DNA of 64,000 nt from Shigella phage vB_SboS_Gloob. The position numbers and the translations under genes are program-made. The notes beneath the pieces are model-generated. The model saw nothing but the letters and a program-made list of their open reading frames with translations. It did no database searches and had not been told where the DNA came from. Below are positions 6,546 through 60,940 of the stretch, in pieces (the first letter of the stretch is position 1; every line of letters starts with the position of its first letter). Location of the stretch: sequence record OL615011, one strand, 5' to 3'.

Positions 6546-6570
6546 AAGAGGCTCCGGCCTCTTTTTCATT
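6546..6570 (+). terminator. rho-independent terminator
   Basis: agaggctccggcctct hairpin followed by TTTTT. Confidence 0.6.
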
Positions 6571-30170: not shown

Positions 30171-31372
30171 AACTTCCTCAATTTGGCTCTGGTGACCTGA
30201 GTTTGTTTAACGCCATTATACTCGGTCAGTTCTTTGACACGACCACGGATGATCATGTCGCCCTGCAGGAACTCGGTATCCATGTACGAGGTCTTCCAGG
30301 TAATTGTATTACCTTCTGCTGTTTTGAAAGTGAACAGGTAGCTGTCGCCGTATTCATTAGAGAAGAGGAAGGTACGCTTGTCAAACGTGACGCGGACTTC
30401 CAGCATTTCACCGACTTCTGCTACCCACTTGTTCTCCGTCTTGCGGTCGGTGCGAGGACGATGGATGTAATCGTAATACTTCTTGGCACCCCAACGGACT
30501 GTGTTGGAATCCTTAATGAGGTGATAGCCAGGTTCACACATGCGTTTCAAGCGAACATTGAATTCGTTGGATTCAGACAGCGCGCTGATGAAGAGCATCA
30601 TGTGGTACATTTCTGACTCGGCGTCTTCGCGATATTCACGAGCCTTAATCAGAAACATCTCGGCATCAGAACCCGCCTTTGGCTTCTGCCCAGCACGCAG
30701 GTAGCCCAGCACCTGGTCAAACAGTTCTGATTTGATGTCCACTCCAGCCAGCAGCACCTGGAAGCATGCACGCAAATAACCGTGGGTGTCCGCGAAGCGT
30801 TCATTCCGGACGCGATAGATCCCCTCTGGGTCGTCTTCATCCGGCATGAAGAATTCGGTGATGCCCAGATAGTAAGACATAATCGCATCAAGAGATTTCT
30901 GATGCGGTACGTAGTGATGCATGCAGGTGCTACCGATCAGCATCTGGGTGTGGGTCTGCTCATTCTCAATCACATATGTGTTCTTGCGATTGATGAGCAG
31001 ATTGCAGTGCTGGCACCAAGAAACGTTCTCCCCCTCGAAGCGACGGATGAAGTCGGCATTGATGTTGTCAGACAGTTTGTTCAGGATGACCTTTGGGTAT
31101 TCGTGATTGAACTGACCGATAATCTTCCATCCGCCGTAAGAAACTGGGCGGTCAATGCCTTCTCCTTCGAGGGTGACGGGTTTCCACCAGTGAGTAAGGA
31201 TCTCACCAGTGATGTCACGGGTGTGGGTCTTGAAGGGATCACCATAAGTCACAGTCGGGAACGGGACACCCAGCCTTTCGGCAGTGCGCTCGAGCTTCTT
31301 CAGCCGCTCAACGACCAGTTCTTCATTGTCGATCGGAATGTTGAATGTTTTGGCGTTCATTTCCAGCCTCAT
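30167..31372 (-). CDS. hypothetical protein with Cys/His cluster
   Basis: 401-aa ORF; WCQHC ... STCMHHY motif; AT-rich putative promoter upstream. Confidence 0.6.
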   Translation of the reverse strand: MRLEMNAKTFNIPIDNEELVVERLKKLERTAERLGVPFPTVTYGDPFKTHTRDITGEILTHWWKPVTLEGEGIDRPVSYGGWKIIGQFNHEYPKVILNKLSDNINADFIRRFEGENVSWCQHCNLLINRKNTYVIENEQTHTQMLIGSTCMHHYVPHQKSLDAIMSYYLGITEFFMPDEDDPEGIYRVRNERFADTHGYLRACFQVLLAGVDIKSELFDQVLGYLRAGQKPKAGSDAEMFLIKAREYREDAESEMYHMMLFISALSESNEFNVRLKRMCEPGYHLIKDSNTVRWGAKKYYDYIHRPRTDRKTENKWVAEVGEMLEVRVTFDKRTFLFSNEYGDSYLFTFKTAEGNTITWKTSYMDTEFLQGDMIIRGRVKELTEYNGVKQTQVTRAKLRKL

Positions 31373-31447
31373 GATTTAGTAACAACTCTTCAATAGAGAT
31401 TAAATATTAGGCGCTTTATTCTTGAAAGTAAAGTTATTGAAATTAAA

Positions 31448-31470
31448 AAGCCCAGTACTTGACTGGGCTT
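31448..31470 (-). terminator. rho-independent terminator (minus strand)
   Basis: aagcccagtacttgactgggctt hairpin; T-run on minus strand. Confidence 0.55.
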
Positions 31471-31487
31471 CTTGGTATTCGGTCCGT

Positions 31488-31808
31488 TTATTCTTCAGCA
31501 GAATCAACGTTCGGGTCACGATCCGGTTTAGCGTTCGGGAACAAGGATTCATAAAGATCCTGATACTTCTCGCTCGTTTCGATCGTTTTCTGGTAGGTGC
31601 CATTCGCGCGGTCAGACACAACCTTACGCAGGTCGCTGGCCTTAATGCCCGTGTCTTTCGCCAGCTCGGCCAGAGTCTCAGTAATGAAAGTCTGTTCCGA
31701 TTTGATGCGGACCTGGGCGGCGCGGCAGTTTTCAATCGCGCCCATCAGCTTGCGGCGAGACTCAGGATCAGACGGTAGTGCATAAAAGCCGATTTGTTCT
31801 ACAGACAT
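31488..31808 (-). CDS. hypothetical protein
   Basis: 106-aa ORF. Confidence 0.55.
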   Translation of the reverse strand: MSVEQIGFYALPSDPESRRKLMGAIENCRAAQVRIKSEQTFITETLAELAKDTGIKASDLRKVVSDRANGTYQKTIETSEKYQDLYESLFPNAKPDRDPNVDSAEE

Positions 31809-45665: not shown

Positions 45666-46173
45666 TACTTTTCTCCAGTTCATAATCGCGCTCCACAACA
45701 TATTGGTAGACACGCATCTTAATATAGTCGGCACCACCTGCTGAAGACAGCACCCTCCATCCACTACTAAGGACATTCATCTTATATTGACCAACACCCT
45801 CTTGAAAATAACTTTTAATCTGTTCCAGCTTTCGCCCACGATGATAATACGAGATGAGTTCACCGATAACAATACAATCGGGATAATGTTTGTCAAGGGT
45901 ATCAATATTTCGGTGGACGTAGACAGGCAACACGTCTTCATCGTCGATAGGGCTGTAGTACGGGTCTACGATGACCACCTGTAGATCATACGACAATAAA
46001 TCCTTGACGCCCATACGACAGAACTTATAATCTTCGTGCTTCATTGCCACCTGGAGGATATTCTCTTTCTTGGCATAATCGGTCAGGAAGATAAAGAAGT
46101 CTGTGTTGGGATCGGGATATTGTATAGACAGTTCTTTGCCTATTTCACTAAAACAAAATCCGCGCATTTTCAT
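45643..46173 (-). CDS. hypothetical protein
   Basis: 176-aa ORF; contains VVIVDPYYSP segment. Confidence 0.5.
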   Translation of the reverse strand: MKMRGFCFSEIGKELSIQYPDPNTDFFIFLTDYAKKENILQVAMKHEDYKFCRMGVKDLLSYDLQVVIVDPYYSPIDDEDVLPVYVHRNIDTLDKHYPDCIVIGELISYYHRGRKLEQIKSYFQEGVGQYKMNVLSSGWRVLSSAGGADYIKMRVYQYVVERDYELEKSNAKRKTR

Positions 46174-46216
46174 TCCTCGTTATAATTACTCTTACAATAT
46201 ACCGTGGAGATACATT

Positions 46217-47023
46217 ATGAATTTGCCATCATTGCCCAGAACAGAAAAGACATATAAAAGCGACTTTTGGCCTACTGTGATCAAATATCGCGCCTTTACT
46301 GCGGGGCAACAAACTTTATTACTTCAGGTGTCAGATCCGCAAACGCCGATTGAAGAACGCGCGGCCATGATGGAGAGCCTCTTCAGCGAGTGTGTAAATG
46401 CAGGTGCGCCTTTCAGCAAACTGCCAATCGGTGTTGTTGAGGAAGTGTTCATCCGTATGCGCATGATCGCCATCGGCGAATTGATGAAGATTCGCTACAA
46501 GTGCAATAATCAGGTTGAAGAAACGATCGATCTAGGGGATGGTCAAGAAAAGCGCCAGATGGTTCCCTGTGAGCAGGAACTGACTCTACCTATCCCGCTG
46601 AACAATGTAAAATGCATTGCTCAGGACGGCTTCCAGGAGACGTTTGACCTGCCGGGTGGCTATCACCTCAAGATGCGCCAACCTTCCTTCTCGGACGCTA
46701 CGGCGCTGTCTGATGCTGCAAGTGTTGAGATGATGCTGGCCACCTTTATCGACTGCCTGTACGATGATGACGGTCAGGTGTGGAAGGTTGAGAATCCTGA
46801 AGAAATCGGGATCACTCCGGAAGAGGCTACCGAGCGCCGCCGTGTGAAAGAAGCATTTGTTGAGTGGGTGAAGGATAACATCGAATCAGATGTCATCGAC
46901 AGCATTACGAAGAACTTCTTCCACAAAATACCGCGCATCCACTACAAGAGTTCAATCAAGTGTCCGAAGTGTGGTAAGGAACACAAGATCGAATTCAATA
47001 GCATTAATGAAATTTTCATCTAA
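46217..47023 (+). CDS. hypothetical protein with C-terminal zinc ribbon (possible baseplate assembly protein by position)
   Basis: ATG 46217 inside track ORF; C-terminal CPKCGKEH; terminator downstream. Confidence 0.55.
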   Translation: MNLPSLPRTEKTYKSDFWPTVIKYRAFTAGQQTLLLQVSDPQTPIEERAAMMESLFSECVNAGAPFSKLPIGVVEEVFIRMRMIAIGELMKIRYKCNNQVEETIDLGDGQEKRQMVPCEQELTLPIPLNNVKCIAQDGFQETFDLPGGYHLKMRQPSFSDATALSDAASVEMMLATFIDCLYDDDGQVWKVENPEEIGITPEEATERRRVKEAFVEWVKDNIESDVIDSITKNFFHKIPRIHYKSSIKCPKCGKEHKIEFNSINEIFI

Positions 47024-47171
47024 TGTTTGAAACTGATTTACTATCCTACTTCGTGATGTGTGATGAATTGAAGTTACACGGCTATAGCATATTTGAAATC
47101 AACGAGTCGATGCCGTGGCATCTTGACTTGTTAACCGAAGCCCTCAAGGTCAGGTTGTCTAAGAAACAGTA

Positions 47172-47195
47172 ATCCCGCTTCGGCGGGATTTTTAT
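47172..47195 (+). terminator. rho-independent terminator
   Basis: atcccgcttcggcgggat hairpin (ttcg loop) then TTTTTATT. Confidence 0.65.
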
Positions 47196-47533
47196 TGGCT
47201 TAACTGTAAAACAGGTTAACGCGTGCTCTCTTTACCTGAAATTGTTATAATGGGCCTGTTCCTGAGTCATTTGTTGGGGATCGTCTATTTTGAATCAGAT
47301 TGTCAGTAAAATACCATTTTTCAAGGAGTGTTCTGAGGTGTACAGTTATTGCCTCGCTCTTATGCCTCCATGGCATTGGAATGGTGCTGCCTGCATAAGG
47401 CGGTGTGATGAGCGAAGCGAATAGGATCGAATAACAAATAAAATGAACGGAAGCAGAGCTTCCTATAGTATATAAGGCAAAATCCGCTGCGCATAAATAC
47501 CTTCAAATCCTTGTTTGACAACCGGAATTCACT

Positions 47534-49141
47534 ATGTTAGACAATATGAGATGGTTTTATGGCACCGTTGAAGATGTCAACGATCCAGACCAAAACGGGC
47601 GCGTCGCCGTCCGCATCTATGGCGTCCACACTGATGACACCGTCCTCCTGCCTACGGATAAACTCCCATGGGCGAAGGTACTGATGCCTGCTTCAAACGC
47701 CTCCTCTGCTGGTTTAGGTTGGTCTCCAACGGGTATCATTCCCGGCACTGAGGTTATGGGGTTCGCCCTTGACGAAGCATACCAGAACCTGCGTATCACT
47801 TGGACTTGGCCTGGGGCAAATCCCACTGATGGGGCAGACACGAATCCACTGGCTCTCGGACAGGTCGTTCAATCGGTAGAACGTCAGGCGTACAACGCCG
47901 TCACTGACGTTCCTGTGAAACAAGAAGACGAACCACAACCAGATCCACAACCACCTGTTGGTGGGTATGATCCTGAAAAATGGATGACCATCGCTCGTGG
48001 TGAGCTGGGTGTCAAGGAGTACGCCGGAAAGTTCAACAACAACCCGCGCATTATAGAATATCACAAGACAACCTCCCTTGGTGCTTCTGAAGATGAAGTG
48101 TCGTGGTGTGCGGCGTTCGTGGGCTGGGTTATGTTGCAGGCTGGATACACGTCTACGCGCTCCGCTCTTGCCCGATCTTACCTTACATGGGGTAGTGCAC
48201 TGTCAGCACCACAATATGGTGCTATCGTAGTCTTCCGGCGCGGTAACAACCCTACATTTGGACACGTGGCGTTTGTACAGAAGTTCGATGCAAACTATGT
48301 CTGGTGTATCGGTGGCAACCAATCCGATTCAGTGAAGGTCAGCCGCTTCAGCCGTTCGTCAGTCCTGGGCTACCGCTGGCCTGGTCCTGCTAACACAGCC
48401 ACAGCCGCGCCTGCGCAGCAGAATGGTAAATGGTCAGAACCTATCCCAGATCGTACTCCAAAGGAACAACCGACTCCGGCTCCTACAGGGCGCGTCCAGG
48501 ATATTGATAACACGGGCGAAACTATGGTTCCGGCAGCGGGTGGCTCCAAGTACCCGTACAACAACGTCATGGCGTCCCGAGCAGGTCACATAATGGAGGT
48601 GGACGACACTCCTGGTGGTGAGCGTCTTCATTGGATGCACATGTCCGGCTCCTACAAACAGATGCTCCCGAACGGCGACGTCGTCAACAAGTCAGTGAAG
48701 GATCATTATGACCTGACCATGTTTGACAAGCGCTATTATGTCGGCGGGGACCACAACCTGACGGTCAAAGGAACTGAAGTTCAGCGCAAGACTGGTGAGG
48801 TCTATCACCTTCACTCCAACAACTACTCAAATGTGGTTGCTGGTACAGCGCTTATGAAGTTCAGCAACCTAGCAGAGATCCAAGCCCAGAATATCCTGCG
48901 CATCATCTGTGAGACTCTGGAAGTTGGTGGAACTCTCAAGGTGCCGAAGATCCTGGCCACTGAGATCATCGCCGACAAACTGTCGGTCGCTCAGACGATT
49001 GATGGCAACATCAAATATGCCGAGGGTGCAGGTCGTGCTTCTTCTCTGTCTGGTGCTACCCCTGCAACCCCATCGGGTCCAGGCGAGATAGATATTAAGG
49101 CAGAATTAAAAGACAATGGTGGTAATTTCGGCACCGAGTAA
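47534..49141 (+). CDS. baseplate central spike protein (gp5-like) with CHAP peptidase domain
   Basis: N-terminal OB-like region, central Cys/His CHAP-like motifs (SWCAAFVGWV ... GHVAFV), C-terminal beta-helix-like repeat region. Confidence 0.75.
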   Translation: MLDNMRWFYGTVEDVNDPDQNGRVAVRIYGVHTDDTVLLPTDKLPWAKVLMPASNASSAGLGWSPTGIIPGTEVMGFALDEAYQNLRITWTWPGANPTDGADTNPLALGQVVQSVERQAYNAVTDVPVKQEDEPQPDPQPPVGGYDPEKWMTIARGELGVKEYAGKFNNNPRIIEYHKTTSLGASEDEVSWCAAFVGWVMLQAGYTSTRSALARSYLTWGSALSAPQYGAIVVFRRGNNPTFGHVAFVQKFDANYVWCIGGNQSDSVKVSRFSRSSVLGYRWPGPANTATAAPAQQNGKWSEPIPDRTPKEQPTPAPTGRVQDIDNTGETMVPAAGGSKYPYNNVMASRAGHIMEVDDTPGGERLHWMHMSGSYKQMLPNGDVVNKSVKDHYDLTMFDKRYYVGGDHNLTVKGTEVQRKTGEVYHLHSNNYSNVVAGTALMKFSNLAEIQAQNILRIICETLEVGGTLKVPKILATEIIADKLSVAQTIDGNIKYAEGAGRASSLSGATPATPSGPGEIDIKAELKDNGGNFGTE

Positions 49142-57461: not shown

Positions 57462-57608
57462 GATGTAATTCCTCATAATGTAGTTGGTTCGTTTCACTTT
57501 TCATTCGGCGGTGTGTTGCCGCCCTATGTGAACTATAATAGTGCATCATTATTGAAGAGTAAAGTCTTTTTCAATAAATTTTTAAAATAATTTTGAAGTA
57601 TTTTAAAA

Positions 57609-57627
57609 GGCCTCATTCGACGAGGCC
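57609..57627 (-). terminator. rho-independent terminator
   Basis: ggcctcattcgacgaggcc hairpin; TTTTAAAAT on minus strand. Confidence 0.5.
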
Positions 57628-57656
57628 TGGAGGGAGGTGATGTGAAGTAAAAAGTT

Positions 57657-57863
57657 TTAGCTCGGGCGAACTCTTACAAACTCGCGAGCCAATTCGGCCT
57701 GCTCAGCACTGATGGGAACCCCATGGAAGTCCACCTGGCCATTCTTCCAGCCGTGGATGAAACTCGGGGACTCTTCCCCAGATAGGACATACCCCTCACG
57801 AGATTTCAAGTATCCCCGCACGATCTCCCCGTCGTCCAGTTTGTTCAGTTCTTCTAACGTCAT
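57657..57863 (-). CDS. hypothetical protein
   Basis: 68-aa ORF immediately downstream of primase. Confidence 0.45.
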   Translation of the reverse strand: MTLEELNKLDDGEIVRGYLKSREGYVLSGEESPSFIHGWKNGQVDFHGVPISAEQAELAREFVRVRPS

Positions 57864-58918
57864 TTCACTTTCCTCAGTTCAGCGAATTGCAATGAAGCAG
57901 CCATACCCTGGTAGACGTTCTTGGCGATCAGCTTCAGGAGGTCTTGTATCGGCATGTTGCCCTTTGACGGCATGACCATGTCGTTGATATCCTTCCACGG
58001 AACGTCCGGTGGGAACAGCACGACCTTGACACCTTTATCTATCATCTTCTGAATACCGTCACACACCTGCGGGTTCCGGTACTGATTATCAGGGATATAG
58101 ATGTCGCCCTTCACGCTCAACAAGTCGGCATCTGCTGACGCCATACAATTCGGCAGGAAGAGGCTATCAATCGGACCTTCCACCACCAGCTTGGTCTTGT
58201 GAATGTTCACCCGGTCTTCCCCATAGACTTTGGTGTCCTCGTCCTTGGGCTTGACTGTCGCGTATCGCAGGGTCGCGTTCTTGTCGAATGCACGCCCCTG
58301 AACGACCTTCATCCGCCCGTCTTGCGTCCAGAATGGAATCACCAGCCGTTCGTCATCAGGGATCTTCAGTTGCTTTTCGGGGTCTGTTTCAAACAGCTTC
58401 AGGTCTTCACGAAAGCGCTGTGTGTAGTACAGTAAGGACCAAGTGCTCTCCGGCAGCCCTCGCCACTGTACGTACTGTCGAGCCTTATGGTCAGGCGGTA
58501 GTAGATCAAGCCGGAGCATATTGCCGAGGAGGCTCTCGTCGCGTTTTGCCGCCACTGAGCCAATACGGGCGGTCTGTGTCAGCTTTGGCAACGGCTTCAG
58601 GGAAGGAAGTGGTCTGCCCGACGTATCACCCAGCAGGCGGAACTTCTCCATGTTGTACTCTGTTGAGAGGCGCTCATCGAACTTCTTCAGCCAGAACTCA
58701 AATGACCAGCCATTCATCTGGTTGCAGTTGTGGCACTTGAACCGGAAGCAGTCATGATCCCGATCATAGAAGAAGTATCCACGGCGCTTGTTAGCAGACT
58801 TCGTGGAGTCACCACACAGGGGACAACGGAAGTTTGCGACAGTACCAACGCGCTCCCACTTGAACTTGTCAAGGCGGGGCGACACGTTGTTGATAAATTG
58901 CTCGTCAAGAAATTTCAT
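57860..58918 (-). CDS. DNA primase (T4 gp61-like)
   Basis: N-terminal zinc ribbon (FRCPLCGDS...CHNCN) and TOPRIM (LVVEGPIDSLFL) resembling T4 gp61 as recalled. Confidence 0.8.
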   Translation of the reverse strand: MKFLDEQFINNVSPRLDKFKWERVGTVANFRCPLCGDSTKSANKRRGYFFYDRDHDCFRFKCHNCNQMNGWSFEFWLKKFDERLSTEYNMEKFRLLGDTSGRPLPSLKPLPKLTQTARIGSVAAKRDESLLGNMLRLDLLPPDHKARQYVQWRGLPESTWSLLYYTQRFREDLKLFETDPEKQLKIPDDERLVIPFWTQDGRMKVVQGRAFDKNATLRYATVKPKDEDTKVYGEDRVNIHKTKLVVEGPIDSLFLPNCMASADADLLSVKGDIYIPDNQYRNPQVCDGIQKMIDKGVKVVLFPPDVPWKDINDMVMPSKGNMPIQDLLKLIAKNVYQGMAASLQFAELRKVK

Positions 58919-60310: not shown

Positions 60311-60916
60311 ATGAAAACTTTTCAAGACTTTTTGACCGAAGCCGCGCCGCCGATGTCTGTTCATATCAAGGCAGACAAGATCGGCAAGTCCACCGAAGAC
60401 AATATCGGTACTTTCTTGCGAGTTAGTGTTAGTGGCGACAAAGCTACTTTTGAAACCCCAGACGGGCGCAAGATAATCCTGACCAATGCCAAAGACATCA
60501 TTTCCGCATCTGGCCTGAAAGATGGCCAGTTTGCCAGTGCCCAGATGATTGACAAGGTTGATACTGACACCGCTGTCAAGTACAACAAATCAGGCAAATA
60601 TATTGACTTGTTGGATGTCAAATCAGGTATGGGCAATTCCTTTATCTCCATTGACGGTAACAAGCAATGGAAAGAAATGACCGAAGGTGGTTGGTATGCG
60701 TATAAAGGCGGTCGCCCCGGCTTGGCTCGTTATAAGATCGCCATGGTTATGGGACCTCATGCGGGTATGCCATCTCCTGGGGAAGATATTGAATACGAGT
60801 TACCGAATGGCGGCAAAGAACGCGGAACCGTCATGAAACTGAATGGTGCATCCAAGCTGATGGACGTCAAAAACGAAAAAGGTAAGAAAGTACAAGTCAG
60901 TATGTATGTGAAATAA
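60311..60916 (+). CDS. internal-protein-like protein with CTS-like N-terminus (MKTFQDFLTE)
   Basis: N-terminal decapeptide nearly matches T4 capsid targeting sequence; L-x-E cleavage context. Confidence 0.6.
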   Translation: MKTFQDFLTEAAPPMSVHIKADKIGKSTEDNIGTFLRVSVSGDKATFETPDGRKIILTNAKDIISASGLKDGQFASAQMIDKVDTDTAVKYNKSGKYIDLLDVKSGMGNSFISIDGNKQWKEMTEGGWYAYKGGRPGLARYKIAMVMGPHAGMPSPGEDIEYELPNGGKERGTVMKLNGASKLMDVKNEKGKKVQVSMYVK

Positions 60917-60920
60917 CAAA

Positions 60921-60940
60921 AACCCCGCCGAAGCGGGGTT
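60921..60940. terminator. bidirectional terminator
   Basis: aaccccgccgaagcggggtt hairpin with A-run and T-run on either side, between convergent genes. Confidence 0.65.

Follow-up and report, generated by a model that had tools for sequence, protein, structure and literature searches.

A conserved structured island between two baseplate operons of Shigella phage vB_SboS_Gloob: a candidate small RNA cassette of Ackermannviridae

Introduction

Phage T4 makes two small stable RNAs, species 1 and 2 (RNAs C and D), which are encoded in a tRNA cluster and processed from a tRNA precursor, and very few small RNAs of virulent phages have a known role. The PeSLs (promoter-early stem-loops) of T4-type phages are conserved composite terminator/promoter cassettes (Arbiol 2010 PMC2839356; Comeau 2014 PMC4122927). 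They recur as copies of similar sequence, chiefly in hyperplastic regions, have both a -35 and a -10 box, and flank open reading frames (ORFs). Here, the spacer upstream of the baseplate gene gp5 is compared with these systems in Shigella phage vB_SboS_Gloob, using a stretch of 64,000 nucleotides from record OL615011 (the window; positions count from its first letter). Judged from its sequence, the window belongs to an Agtrevirus similar to Shigella phage Ag3, a ViI-like member of Ackermannviridae. Positions 47243-47469 quite possibly form a promoter-to-hairpin cassette for a plus-strand, early/middle, non-coding small RNA of about 200 nucleotides (nt). Its parts are as follows.

47243-47251, plus strand: P1, an extended -10 promoter-like box (TGtTATAAT), with a predicted transcription start near 47258
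47258-47329, plus strand: A+T-rich 5' section of the putative RNA, with conservation that covers Aglimvirinae and, in part, Miltonvirus (ATTTGTTGGGGA, ATTTTGAA, AAAAACCATTTTTCA.GGAG)
47330-47424, plus strand: conserved core of the putative RNA, 95 nt, containing H1, H2 and the motif GAGCGAAGCGAA (47410-47421)
47362-47376, plus strand: H1, hairpin AUGCC-UCCAU-GGCAU (-6.3 kcal/mol, z -2.6), with a C-rich CCUCC across the stem-loop boundary
47386-47404, plus strand: H2, 7-bp hairpin GCUGCCU-GCAUA-AGGCGGU (-10.9 kcal/mol), 100% paired in 15 distinct sequences
47449-47463, plus strand: H4, GGAAGC-AGA-GCUUCC (-8.1 kcal/mol, z -3.1), a putative 3' hairpin (terminator or stabiliser)
47464-47469, plus strand: P2, TATAGT directly after H4 (TATAAT in Kuttervirus, Taipeivirus and Erwinia phage Ea2809), within an invariant CCTATA(A/G)TAT

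The cassette resembles the T4 RNAs in being a short, structured, non-tRNA RNA gene, putative here, of a T4-related virulent myovirus. However, it has its own promoter-like box, it belongs to no Rfam family, and there is no tRNA or tmRNA gene in the window (ARAGORN finds 0). Like PeSLs, it joins stem-loops to sigma-70-type -10 boxes (H4 with TATAGT/TATAAT, and the preceding terminator with P1). This arrangement recurs in many gaps of the genome, and two such elements bracket the small cassette, with a strong terminator upstream and a hairpin downstream. Unlike in PeSLs, the insert is unique, lies between core baseplate genes, holds no conserved ORF and is itself the most conserved part; there are no -35 boxes, and the elements of different gaps are dissimilar in sequence.

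Members of Ackermannviridae (ViI, CBA120, LIMEstone, Ag3) are widely used in biocontrol and phage therapy. If the reading is correct, the small RNA shared by phages that infect Salmonella, E. coli, Shigella, Klebsiella and Dickeya would add a new factor of regulation or host takeover to those of virulent phages. It would also be a convenient, neutral-looking place to look at when such genomes are to be engineered.

Results and Discussion

A conserved island without a coding signature in the gp5 spacer

An earlier note on this DNA had described 47024-47533 as 510 bp without ORFs, the longest non-coding stretch of the window, beginning with a terminator and holding promoter-like boxes and short inverted repeats. 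About one third of this region is in fact a conserved 49-codon gene (47023-47172, plus strand), and the spacer proper is 47196-47533, some 340-360 bp. The length given was thus wrong, but the equivalent gap before gp5 in Ag3, of 361 bp, is the longest intergenic one in the first 64 kb of that genome. The terminator is real, but sits 150 nt inside the region. The TATAAT-like box was correctly recognized (47246-47251, with TG before it at 47243-47244), as were the inverted repeats (47362-47376, 47386-47404 and 47449-47463). The note had proposed stacked promoters or a small RNA. The spacer does carry promoter-like boxes of two classes: a TATAAT-type box at 47246-47251, TATAGT behind a hairpin at 47449-47469, and a box of the T4 late type at 47492-47499. 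The first two enclose a conserved structured island compatible with a small RNA. Of the other elements, the terminator and late promoter had already been annotated or published, and a supposed TTGACT promoter box lies within a gene; the small RNA itself is putative.

A distant BLAST search with the spacer as query found 271 phage records, with Salmonella, Klebsiella, Escherichia, Dickeya, Shigella, Enterobacter, Serratia and Yersinia among the hosts. The records are mostly annotated under hosts of Ackermannviridae, the taxonomy line having been checked for about 10 of the 271. The comparison of the locus took in about 30 of the approximately 270 public spacers of this family. The 801 bases around the locus are 99.4-99.5% identical to those of Shigella phages Ag3 and MK-13 and Salmonella phage SKML-39, and 91.6% identical to those of the Dickeya phages of Limestonevirus. 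Over the whole spacer, Agtrevirus and Limestonevirus are 94% identical; the genome-wide figure for these two genera is 69% (PMC3296691). In 50-nt bins, the identity of the spacer to Kuttervirus and Taipeivirus is 34-45% (bin starting at 47250), 54-72% (47300), 84-86% (47350), 51-58% (47400) and 58-64% (47450), and the peak in the 47350 bin equals the level of the best-conserved coding bins. The 5' part (47258-47329), which contains AAGGAG at 47323-47328, has diverged in these two genera.

The core is crossed by several short ORFs: 44 amino acids (aa) from TTG 47290, 28 aa from GTG 47338, 20 aa from ATG 47362, and 43 aa on the minus strand. None has a PHROG or Pfam match. Variable sites in the core are distributed 10/9/10 by phase, with no periodicity in any frame on either strand, and one-base indels break every frame. 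By substitution bias, frame retention and ribosome-binding start, the core does not appear to be protein-coding on either strand, and this includes the minus-strand ORF annotated as gp110 in Shigella phage ChubbyThor.

Hairpins kept by compensatory change

The consensus fold of the plus strand gives H1, H2 and H4. Two pairs of H2 have changed on both sides independently: in Taipeivirus a C-G pair has become U-A, and in one further sequence (L004) a U-A pair has become C-G. On the minus strand, the wobble states of H2 (G·U/A-U, U·G and U-A/U·G) would read as A·C mismatches, which favours the plus strand. With H1, a proposed extension and H2 taken together, 98.4% of cells are paired, versus 20-50% when the partners are slid by 1-3 columns. 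All 6 pairs of H4 are retained in each of six sequences, which represent four genera. Two of its positions show compensatory changes, and three extra pair types occur (GGAAGC/GCUUCC; GGAUGC/GCAUCC in Taipeivirus; GGCGGC/GCCGCC in Ea2809). The folding energy of the core is modestly better than that of shuffled sequences (z -2.1).

The element is single-copy. A covariance model of the core (R1) has a single hit in the window (117 bits), and a core 20-mer is found among viral contigs only in the same phages, once per genome. A second copy was looked for in the window and only a terminator-like 23-mer was found (60915-60937). Matches of the 20-mer in bacterial genomes were rejected as chance, lying in unrelated stretches, several of which are one conserved reading frame in metagenome-assembled genomes of Bacteroidota. 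Those in metagenomes were likewise set aside, as the contigs fit the model over the seeded motif alone. E. coli genomes contain no core match that would point to host mimicry. The earlier note had also suggested a covariance-model search for structured RNAs; no family of Rfam 15 reaches its gathering threshold, and a scan with E up to 10 gives nothing over 47330-47424 on the plus strand. Three families appear below threshold, isrB, rsmX and istR (E 0.28-1.4), and each of these hits can be traced to the terminator hairpin at 47171-47193.

A resemblance of H2 to a CRISPR repeat was also considered. The repeat hairpin of type I-F is CUGCC-GUAUA-GGCAG, and the CUGCC-loop-GGCGG of H2 recalls it, and with it the RNA anti-CRISPRs (Racr), which are solitary CRISPR-repeat mimics in phages. 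However, the handle flanks are unlike those of the repeat, one stem pair of H2 is U·G where the repeat has U-A, and most hosts of the core-bearing phages (Salmonella, Klebsiella and Shigella) have mainly type I-E systems. With only the stem similar, the likeness was rejected as chance.

Promoter-like boxes and the hairpin/TATAAT design

P1 is located 50 nt downstream of the terminator. Aglimvirinae, Kuttervirus, Taipeivirus and Ea2809 all retain its TATAA core. The motif is concentrated between genes: in positions 1-64.4 kb of Ag3, 11 of the 24 copies of TATAAT fall in the 2.95 kb of intergenic gaps, versus 1.1 expected (approximately 10-fold enrichment). Ten of these 11 point to the downstream gene, which is mostly one of DNA metabolism (ligase, gp41, gp32, nrdA, primase), and many lie inside or directly after G+C-rich hairpins. 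The arrangement of H4 and TATAGT is matched by that of the element upstream of nrdA, and TATAAT occurs within or after hairpins in 7 other gaps. In its layout, H4 with its -10 box is a composite terminator/promoter design, and by analogy the genome-wide arrangement looks like a PeSL-type composite element. No description of it for Ackermannviridae is found in the Ag3, LIMEstone1 and PeSL 2014 papers. A motif search for a promoter family sharing the context of P1 found none.

The Ag3 gaps with TATAAT in the loop of, or right after, a G+C-rich inverted repeat are at 6546, 27523, 29627, 32351, 38592, 40767, 43590, 54684 and 60402. The gap at 40767 carries GATAAT instead of TATAAT, and the design lies upstream of DNA-metabolism genes. 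Classical strong early promoters of T4 type, TTTAC(T/A)-N17-TA(T/A)(T/A)AT, are seen in the Ag3 gaps 31552-31678, 39533-39708 and 58334-58528. At 127-195 bp, these three are the next-longest intergenic gaps, and correspond to about 31360-31490, 39340-39510 and 57500-57860 of the window. Such strong early promoters (TTTACW-N17-TAYWAT), present in other gaps, are absent from the gp5 spacer.

A putative small RNA between two late operons

The proposed order of events is the following. The 49-codon gene would be translated by coupling to gp26, and the terminator at 47171-47198 would end that late operon. P1, a sigma-70-type extended -10 of the class that precedes the DNA-metabolism genes of the phage, would start a plus-strand RNA of about 200 nt near 47258, early or midway in infection. 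The core of this RNA (47330-47424), with H1, H2 and the motif GAGCGNAGCGAR, would be the functional module, binding a protein or another RNA in trans, and the transcript would end at H4 or be stabilised by it. The TATAGT after H4 may restart transcription, and the T4-type late promoter CATAAATA would drive gp5 late in infection.

The conservation and the few compensatory changes make a new RNA family, confined to Ackermannviridae, a plausible reading of the central cassette. More tentatively, Agtrevirus, Limestonevirus, Kuttervirus and Taipeivirus may have in common a small RNA gene of the early/middle class, so far undescribed, with a late baseplate operon on either side. The invariant core of this RNA (H1 with the CCUCC loop edge, a UUGGAAKGG linker, and H2) might target a factor of the host or the phage in trans, for instance as a decoy/sponge or an anti-defence RNA, possibly with a dual function through an ORF of 18-28 codons, and Miltonvirus and Ea2809 would have a different insert in the slot. 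The slot is a mosaic: Miltonvirus has the 5' part and the GAGCGNAGCGAG motif without H1 and H2, and Ea2809 has the GAGCGNAGCGAG motif together with H4-TATAAT. The putative RNA does not fit the Hfq-type base-pairing class: an A-rich (ARN-like) stretch is present at 47425-47447, but H4 has no U tail, and searches by complementarity found no target above chance level.

Several observations weigh against the small RNA. P1 has no -35 box and is not called by a promoter scan, and several genera have C or A in place of its final T (TATAAC, TATAAA). At the other end, the plus-strand tail of H4 is UAUAGUAU, i.e. UAUAGUAUAU (UAUAAUAUUA in relatives), without the U run of an intrinsic terminator, and the terminator scan reports a site on the minus strand only. 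Termination at H4 may therefore be weak, and transcripts may run into gp5. The core covariance model has no match in Miltonvirus (MAM1, KNP4), in Ea2809 or in 45 environmental distant gp5 loci, and H1 and H2 are missing from the slot in both Miltonvirus and Ea2809. All five pairs of H1 are invariant in 15 sequences and hence uninformative about structure. None of 500 shuffles reaches the observed covariation score for H1, the proposed extension and H2, but this control can be inflated by relatedness, and the main weight lies on the compensatory events, which are few and come from three to five clades. The stretch 47300-47480 folds no better than shuffled sequences (z -0.7). A closing helix around H1 and H2, which is 80% paired with no covariation, was rejected; its distal flanks pair with their own partner no better than with the partners of other clades. 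Complementarity to the GAGCGNAGCGAG motif gave chance-level matches, identifying no target or partner, and no published transcript map or small RNA literature was found for Ackermannviridae.

Alternative readings of the spacer

The spacer might have no product at all, being a DNA-level stack of PeSL-like composite terminator/promoter elements. The core would then be bound by a protein or serve in recombination, and so adjust the balance between early and late gp5 transcription. This is doubtful. The hairpin-plus-TATAAT design is indeed present in at least 8 other gaps of the genome, and PeSLs are known as conserved composite terminator/promoter cassettes (PMC4122927); however, the core is unique rather than a repeated cassette sequence, and the approximately 190 nt conserved between promoter-like box and hairpin are far above the 50-70 bp that a PeSL needs. 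The covariation of H4 is Watson-Crick only, compatible with either strand or with DNA, whereas the pairing of H2 is kept via G·U and compensatory changes that are relevant only to a plus-strand RNA. The GAGCGNAGCGAG motif, the sole block common to five genera, resembles a direct repeat (AGCGA-AGCGA), which counts in favour of this reading.

It is unlikely that the cassette encodes a micro-protein and not an RNA. The candidates are a 28-codon ORF from GTG 47338 (MYSYCLALMPPWHWNGAACIRRCDERSE) and a 20-codon ORF from ATG 47362. In Aglimvirinae, the Shine-Dalgarno sequence AAGGAG precedes GTG 47338 by 9 nt, but it is confined to Aglimvirinae, and the GTG is CTG in Taipeivirus. The frame of ATG 47362 (MPPWHW(N/K)G...) is open for 18-21 codons in Aglimvirinae, Kuttervirus and Taipeivirus, with two Kuttervirus indels that restore it, but this ATG has no Shine-Dalgarno sequence and is within the stem of H1. 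A coding-like signal is seen at the tail, GAG CGN AGC GAR TRR (ERSE-stop), which varies only synonymously or from stop to stop in Aglimvirinae, Miltonvirus and Ea2809 (stops are TAG, with TAA in sequence L094 and TGA in MAM1 and Ea2809). Ea2809 even has two such mini-ORFs, which differ at every third position. Against this, the C-terminal half varies in length and sequence, and Taipeivirus has variable frames and no ERSE-stop. In favour of a peptide, P1 in Ag3 is at the usual 30-45 nt from a TTG/Shine-Dalgarno-like site. Over the core as a whole, the third-position bias is missing (10/9/10), no candidate matches PHROG or Pfam, and in L004 two non-conservative changes, Cys to Arg and Arg to Gly, fall exactly at the compensated H2 pair.

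The tandem mini-ORFs of Ea2809 (L097, 1831-1895) read MSIYERSE-stop and MRVVMVLSERSE-stop. Their ERSE tails are GAA CGA AGT GAA TAA and GAG CGT AGC GAG TGA, so that the stop codons also differ, and these differences resemble a coding-type pattern in an otherwise non-coding-looking slot. For Taipeivirus, the idea that the ERSE frame extends gp5 at its N terminus was rejected for inconsistent frames.

Alternatively, the P1 transcript could be the long 5' leader of an early/middle gp5 mRNA, in which H1, H2 and H4 act in cis (attenuator, processing, stability) and limit the spike/hydrolase before late transcription. The early-transcript hairpins of T4 genes e and soc are echoed by this idea. P1 is oriented towards gp5 as the next gene downstream, and H4, having no U tract, is likely to be read through. 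However, no conserved pairing between the leader and the gp5 ribosome-binding site was found on reading the sequences, the late promoter is downstream of all conserved structure, and the distance and frame from core to gp5 vary among relatives, making the leader an improbable explanation.

Very improbable is an R-loop-type replication origin like T4 oriF/oriG, in which a middle promoter is followed by an A+T-rich unwinding stretch: a promoter-like box does precede the A+T-rich 47262-47325 and the G+C content of the spacer is the lowest locally (0.41), but there is no site-specific turning point of GC skew, the conserved part is the structured core (52% G+C) and not the A+T-rich stretch, and hairpin covariation is unexpected for such an origin.

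Genes and signals flanking the cassette

The terminator, small gene and late promoter around the putative small RNA cassette are ordinary elements that are already known or annotated. The flanking features are as follows.

46217-47023, plus strand: gp26, baseplate hub gene (Pfam PF12322 T4_baseplate, E 7e-46; phrog_150; annotated as gp26 in Ag3 and LIMEstone1)
47023-47172, plus strand: 49-codon gene, weakly gp51-like, coupled to gp26 via a TAATG overlap
47171-47198, plus strand: intrinsic terminator of the gp26/49-aa operon, with an 8-bp stem, a GNRA-like tetraloop region TTCG, then TTTTTATT
47492-47499, plus strand: T4-type late promoter CATAAATA of gp5, invariant in 27 sequences from five genera
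47534-49141, plus strand: gp5, baseplate hub/spike gene with a cell-wall hydrolase domain

The 49-codon ORF is coding, as its variable sites across genera are distributed 10/5/20 by codon position, like those of the flanking genes (43/32/95 in gp26 and 32/17/95 in gp5). It is conserved with synonymous changes in five genera and matches phrog_9633 (E 3e-39). There is no Pfam match, and a weak profile match to phrog_634, 'baseplate hub assembly catalyst' (T4 gp51 family; E 4e-4), covers positions 60-107 of a 121-position profile. The gene directly follows gene 26, as gene 51 does in T4, but it has 49 residues only, the profile match is partial and weak, and the start codon is AUN in most genera. 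The TTGACT that the earlier note had taken for a promoter box (47123-47128) lies inside this ORF, in conserved HLDL codons, with no -10 box 17 nt downstream. Ag3 (orf00083, noted there as having 'no identifiable ribosome-binding site'), LIMEstone1 (ORF060), ChubbyThor, pSal-SNUABM-02 and CAU_YEP3 all carry an annotation of the gene, which is missing from the Vi01, Menlow, PP35 and EspM4VN records.

The gp26 stop TAA (47021-47023) overlaps the start of this ORF, and the first codon of the 49-codon gene always overlaps the gp26 stop (47021-47060 of the window; 1578-1615 in the Ea2809 sequence L097). Only Aglimvirinae have ATG as that codon; Kuttervirus and Taipeivirus have ATT, Miltonvirus has ATC and Ea2809 has ATA (TAATT, TGATC and TAATA, respectively). 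Codons 2-11 evolve as coding sequence, with synonymous CTA/CTC/TTA, TAC/TAT and TTC/TTT. Because these codons still evolve in this way, translation must begin at the overlap; ribosomes would either reinitiate there at an AUN codon other than AUG or enter the frame from gp26 through a -1 shift. The end of gp26 has a conserved RTT-TTC-ATY-stop, and in the window there is a TGA in the -1 frame 5 codons upstream. A fusion of gp26 with the 49-aa protein was rejected, as protein databases hold only clusters of 49 and 51 aa.

The stem of the terminator (47171-47190) is AATCCCGC-TTCG-GCGGGATT, with 8 pairs, 5 of them G-C, and a T run to about 47195 (-13.1 kcal/mol, z -3.3). It thus has the make-up of an intrinsic (Rho-independent) terminator, a G+C-rich stem-loop with a U run directly behind it where a transcription unit ends. 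The stem evolves by compensation across genera (AATCCCGC/GCGGGATT, AACCCCGC/GCGGGGTT, AACCCCAC/GTGGGGTT), which shows that the terminator is real; it is already annotated in LIMEstone1 and Menlow. On the minus strand at 60915-60937 there is a near-copy (21/23 bases) of the terminator sequence CCCGCTTCGGCGGGATTTTTAT, hence the 'two places per record' seen with BLAST.

The near-late box noted earlier at about 47492 was well placed: CATAAATA is at 47492-47499. It is invariant in 27/27 distinct sequences (Aglimvirinae, Kuttervirus, Taipeivirus, Miltonvirus and Erwinia phage Ea2809), 35-41 nt upstream of the gp5 ATG. CATAAATA occurs once in the window, which is the chance expectation, and neither it nor TGNTATAAT is commoner than in shuffles, so the weight of both comes from conservation and genome-wide position and not from frequency. 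All three copies of ATAAATA in the window are 32-41 nt upstream of a gene start on the right strand. In positions 1-64.4 kb of Ag3, 11/16 copies of TAAATA are within the 2.95 kb of intergenic gaps versus 0.7 expected, a 15-fold enrichment. The late promoter of T4 type, TATAAATA, which gp55/gp33 recognize together with the gp45 clamp, is matched at 7/8 positions, the first base of CATAAATA being C, not T. By sequence alone, 47492-47499 is thus a promoter of this type, a -10 element without a -35 box upstream of a late structural gene. Homologues of gp55, gp33 and gp45 are reported for Ag3 (PMC3121705), where gp33 is annotated at 43935-44180. The gp5 late promoter, found here to be family-wide, is already known: it is annotated as a putative late promoter in LIMEstone1 and named Porf084 in the Ag3 paper (PMC3121705).

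Annotations and records

Three points of annotation follow from the comparison: the 49-codon gene is real, the minus-strand ORF of ChubbyThor is without a coding signature, and the late promoter of gp5 is present across the family. The ChubbyThor ORF, gp110 (43 aa, 47245-47376 of the window, minus strand), shows no coding periodicity, and indels interrupt it in Taipeivirus. With no match to any family either, the gene call is probably spurious. The start of gp26 also differs among annotations, with a long 306-aa GTG ORF in ChubbyThor, 268 aa in LIMEstone1 and others, and 218 aa in Ag3. The 268-aa start is ATG 46217 in the window, and the discrepancy spans 46103-46217 of the window (46551 in Ag3). 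There is a TATAAT-type box, GTTATAATTA, 33 nt upstream of ATG 46217.

Finally, two records carry Kuttervirus-like sequence of this locus under other names: OR844944.1 (38.5 kb, named Enterococcus phage Efm 3-10) and MN871475.1 (158 kb, named Pseudomonas phage Pa-sanjiao). The spacer match is 72.5% and the identity of gp5 is 87%, suggesting that these are mislabelled or contaminated records.

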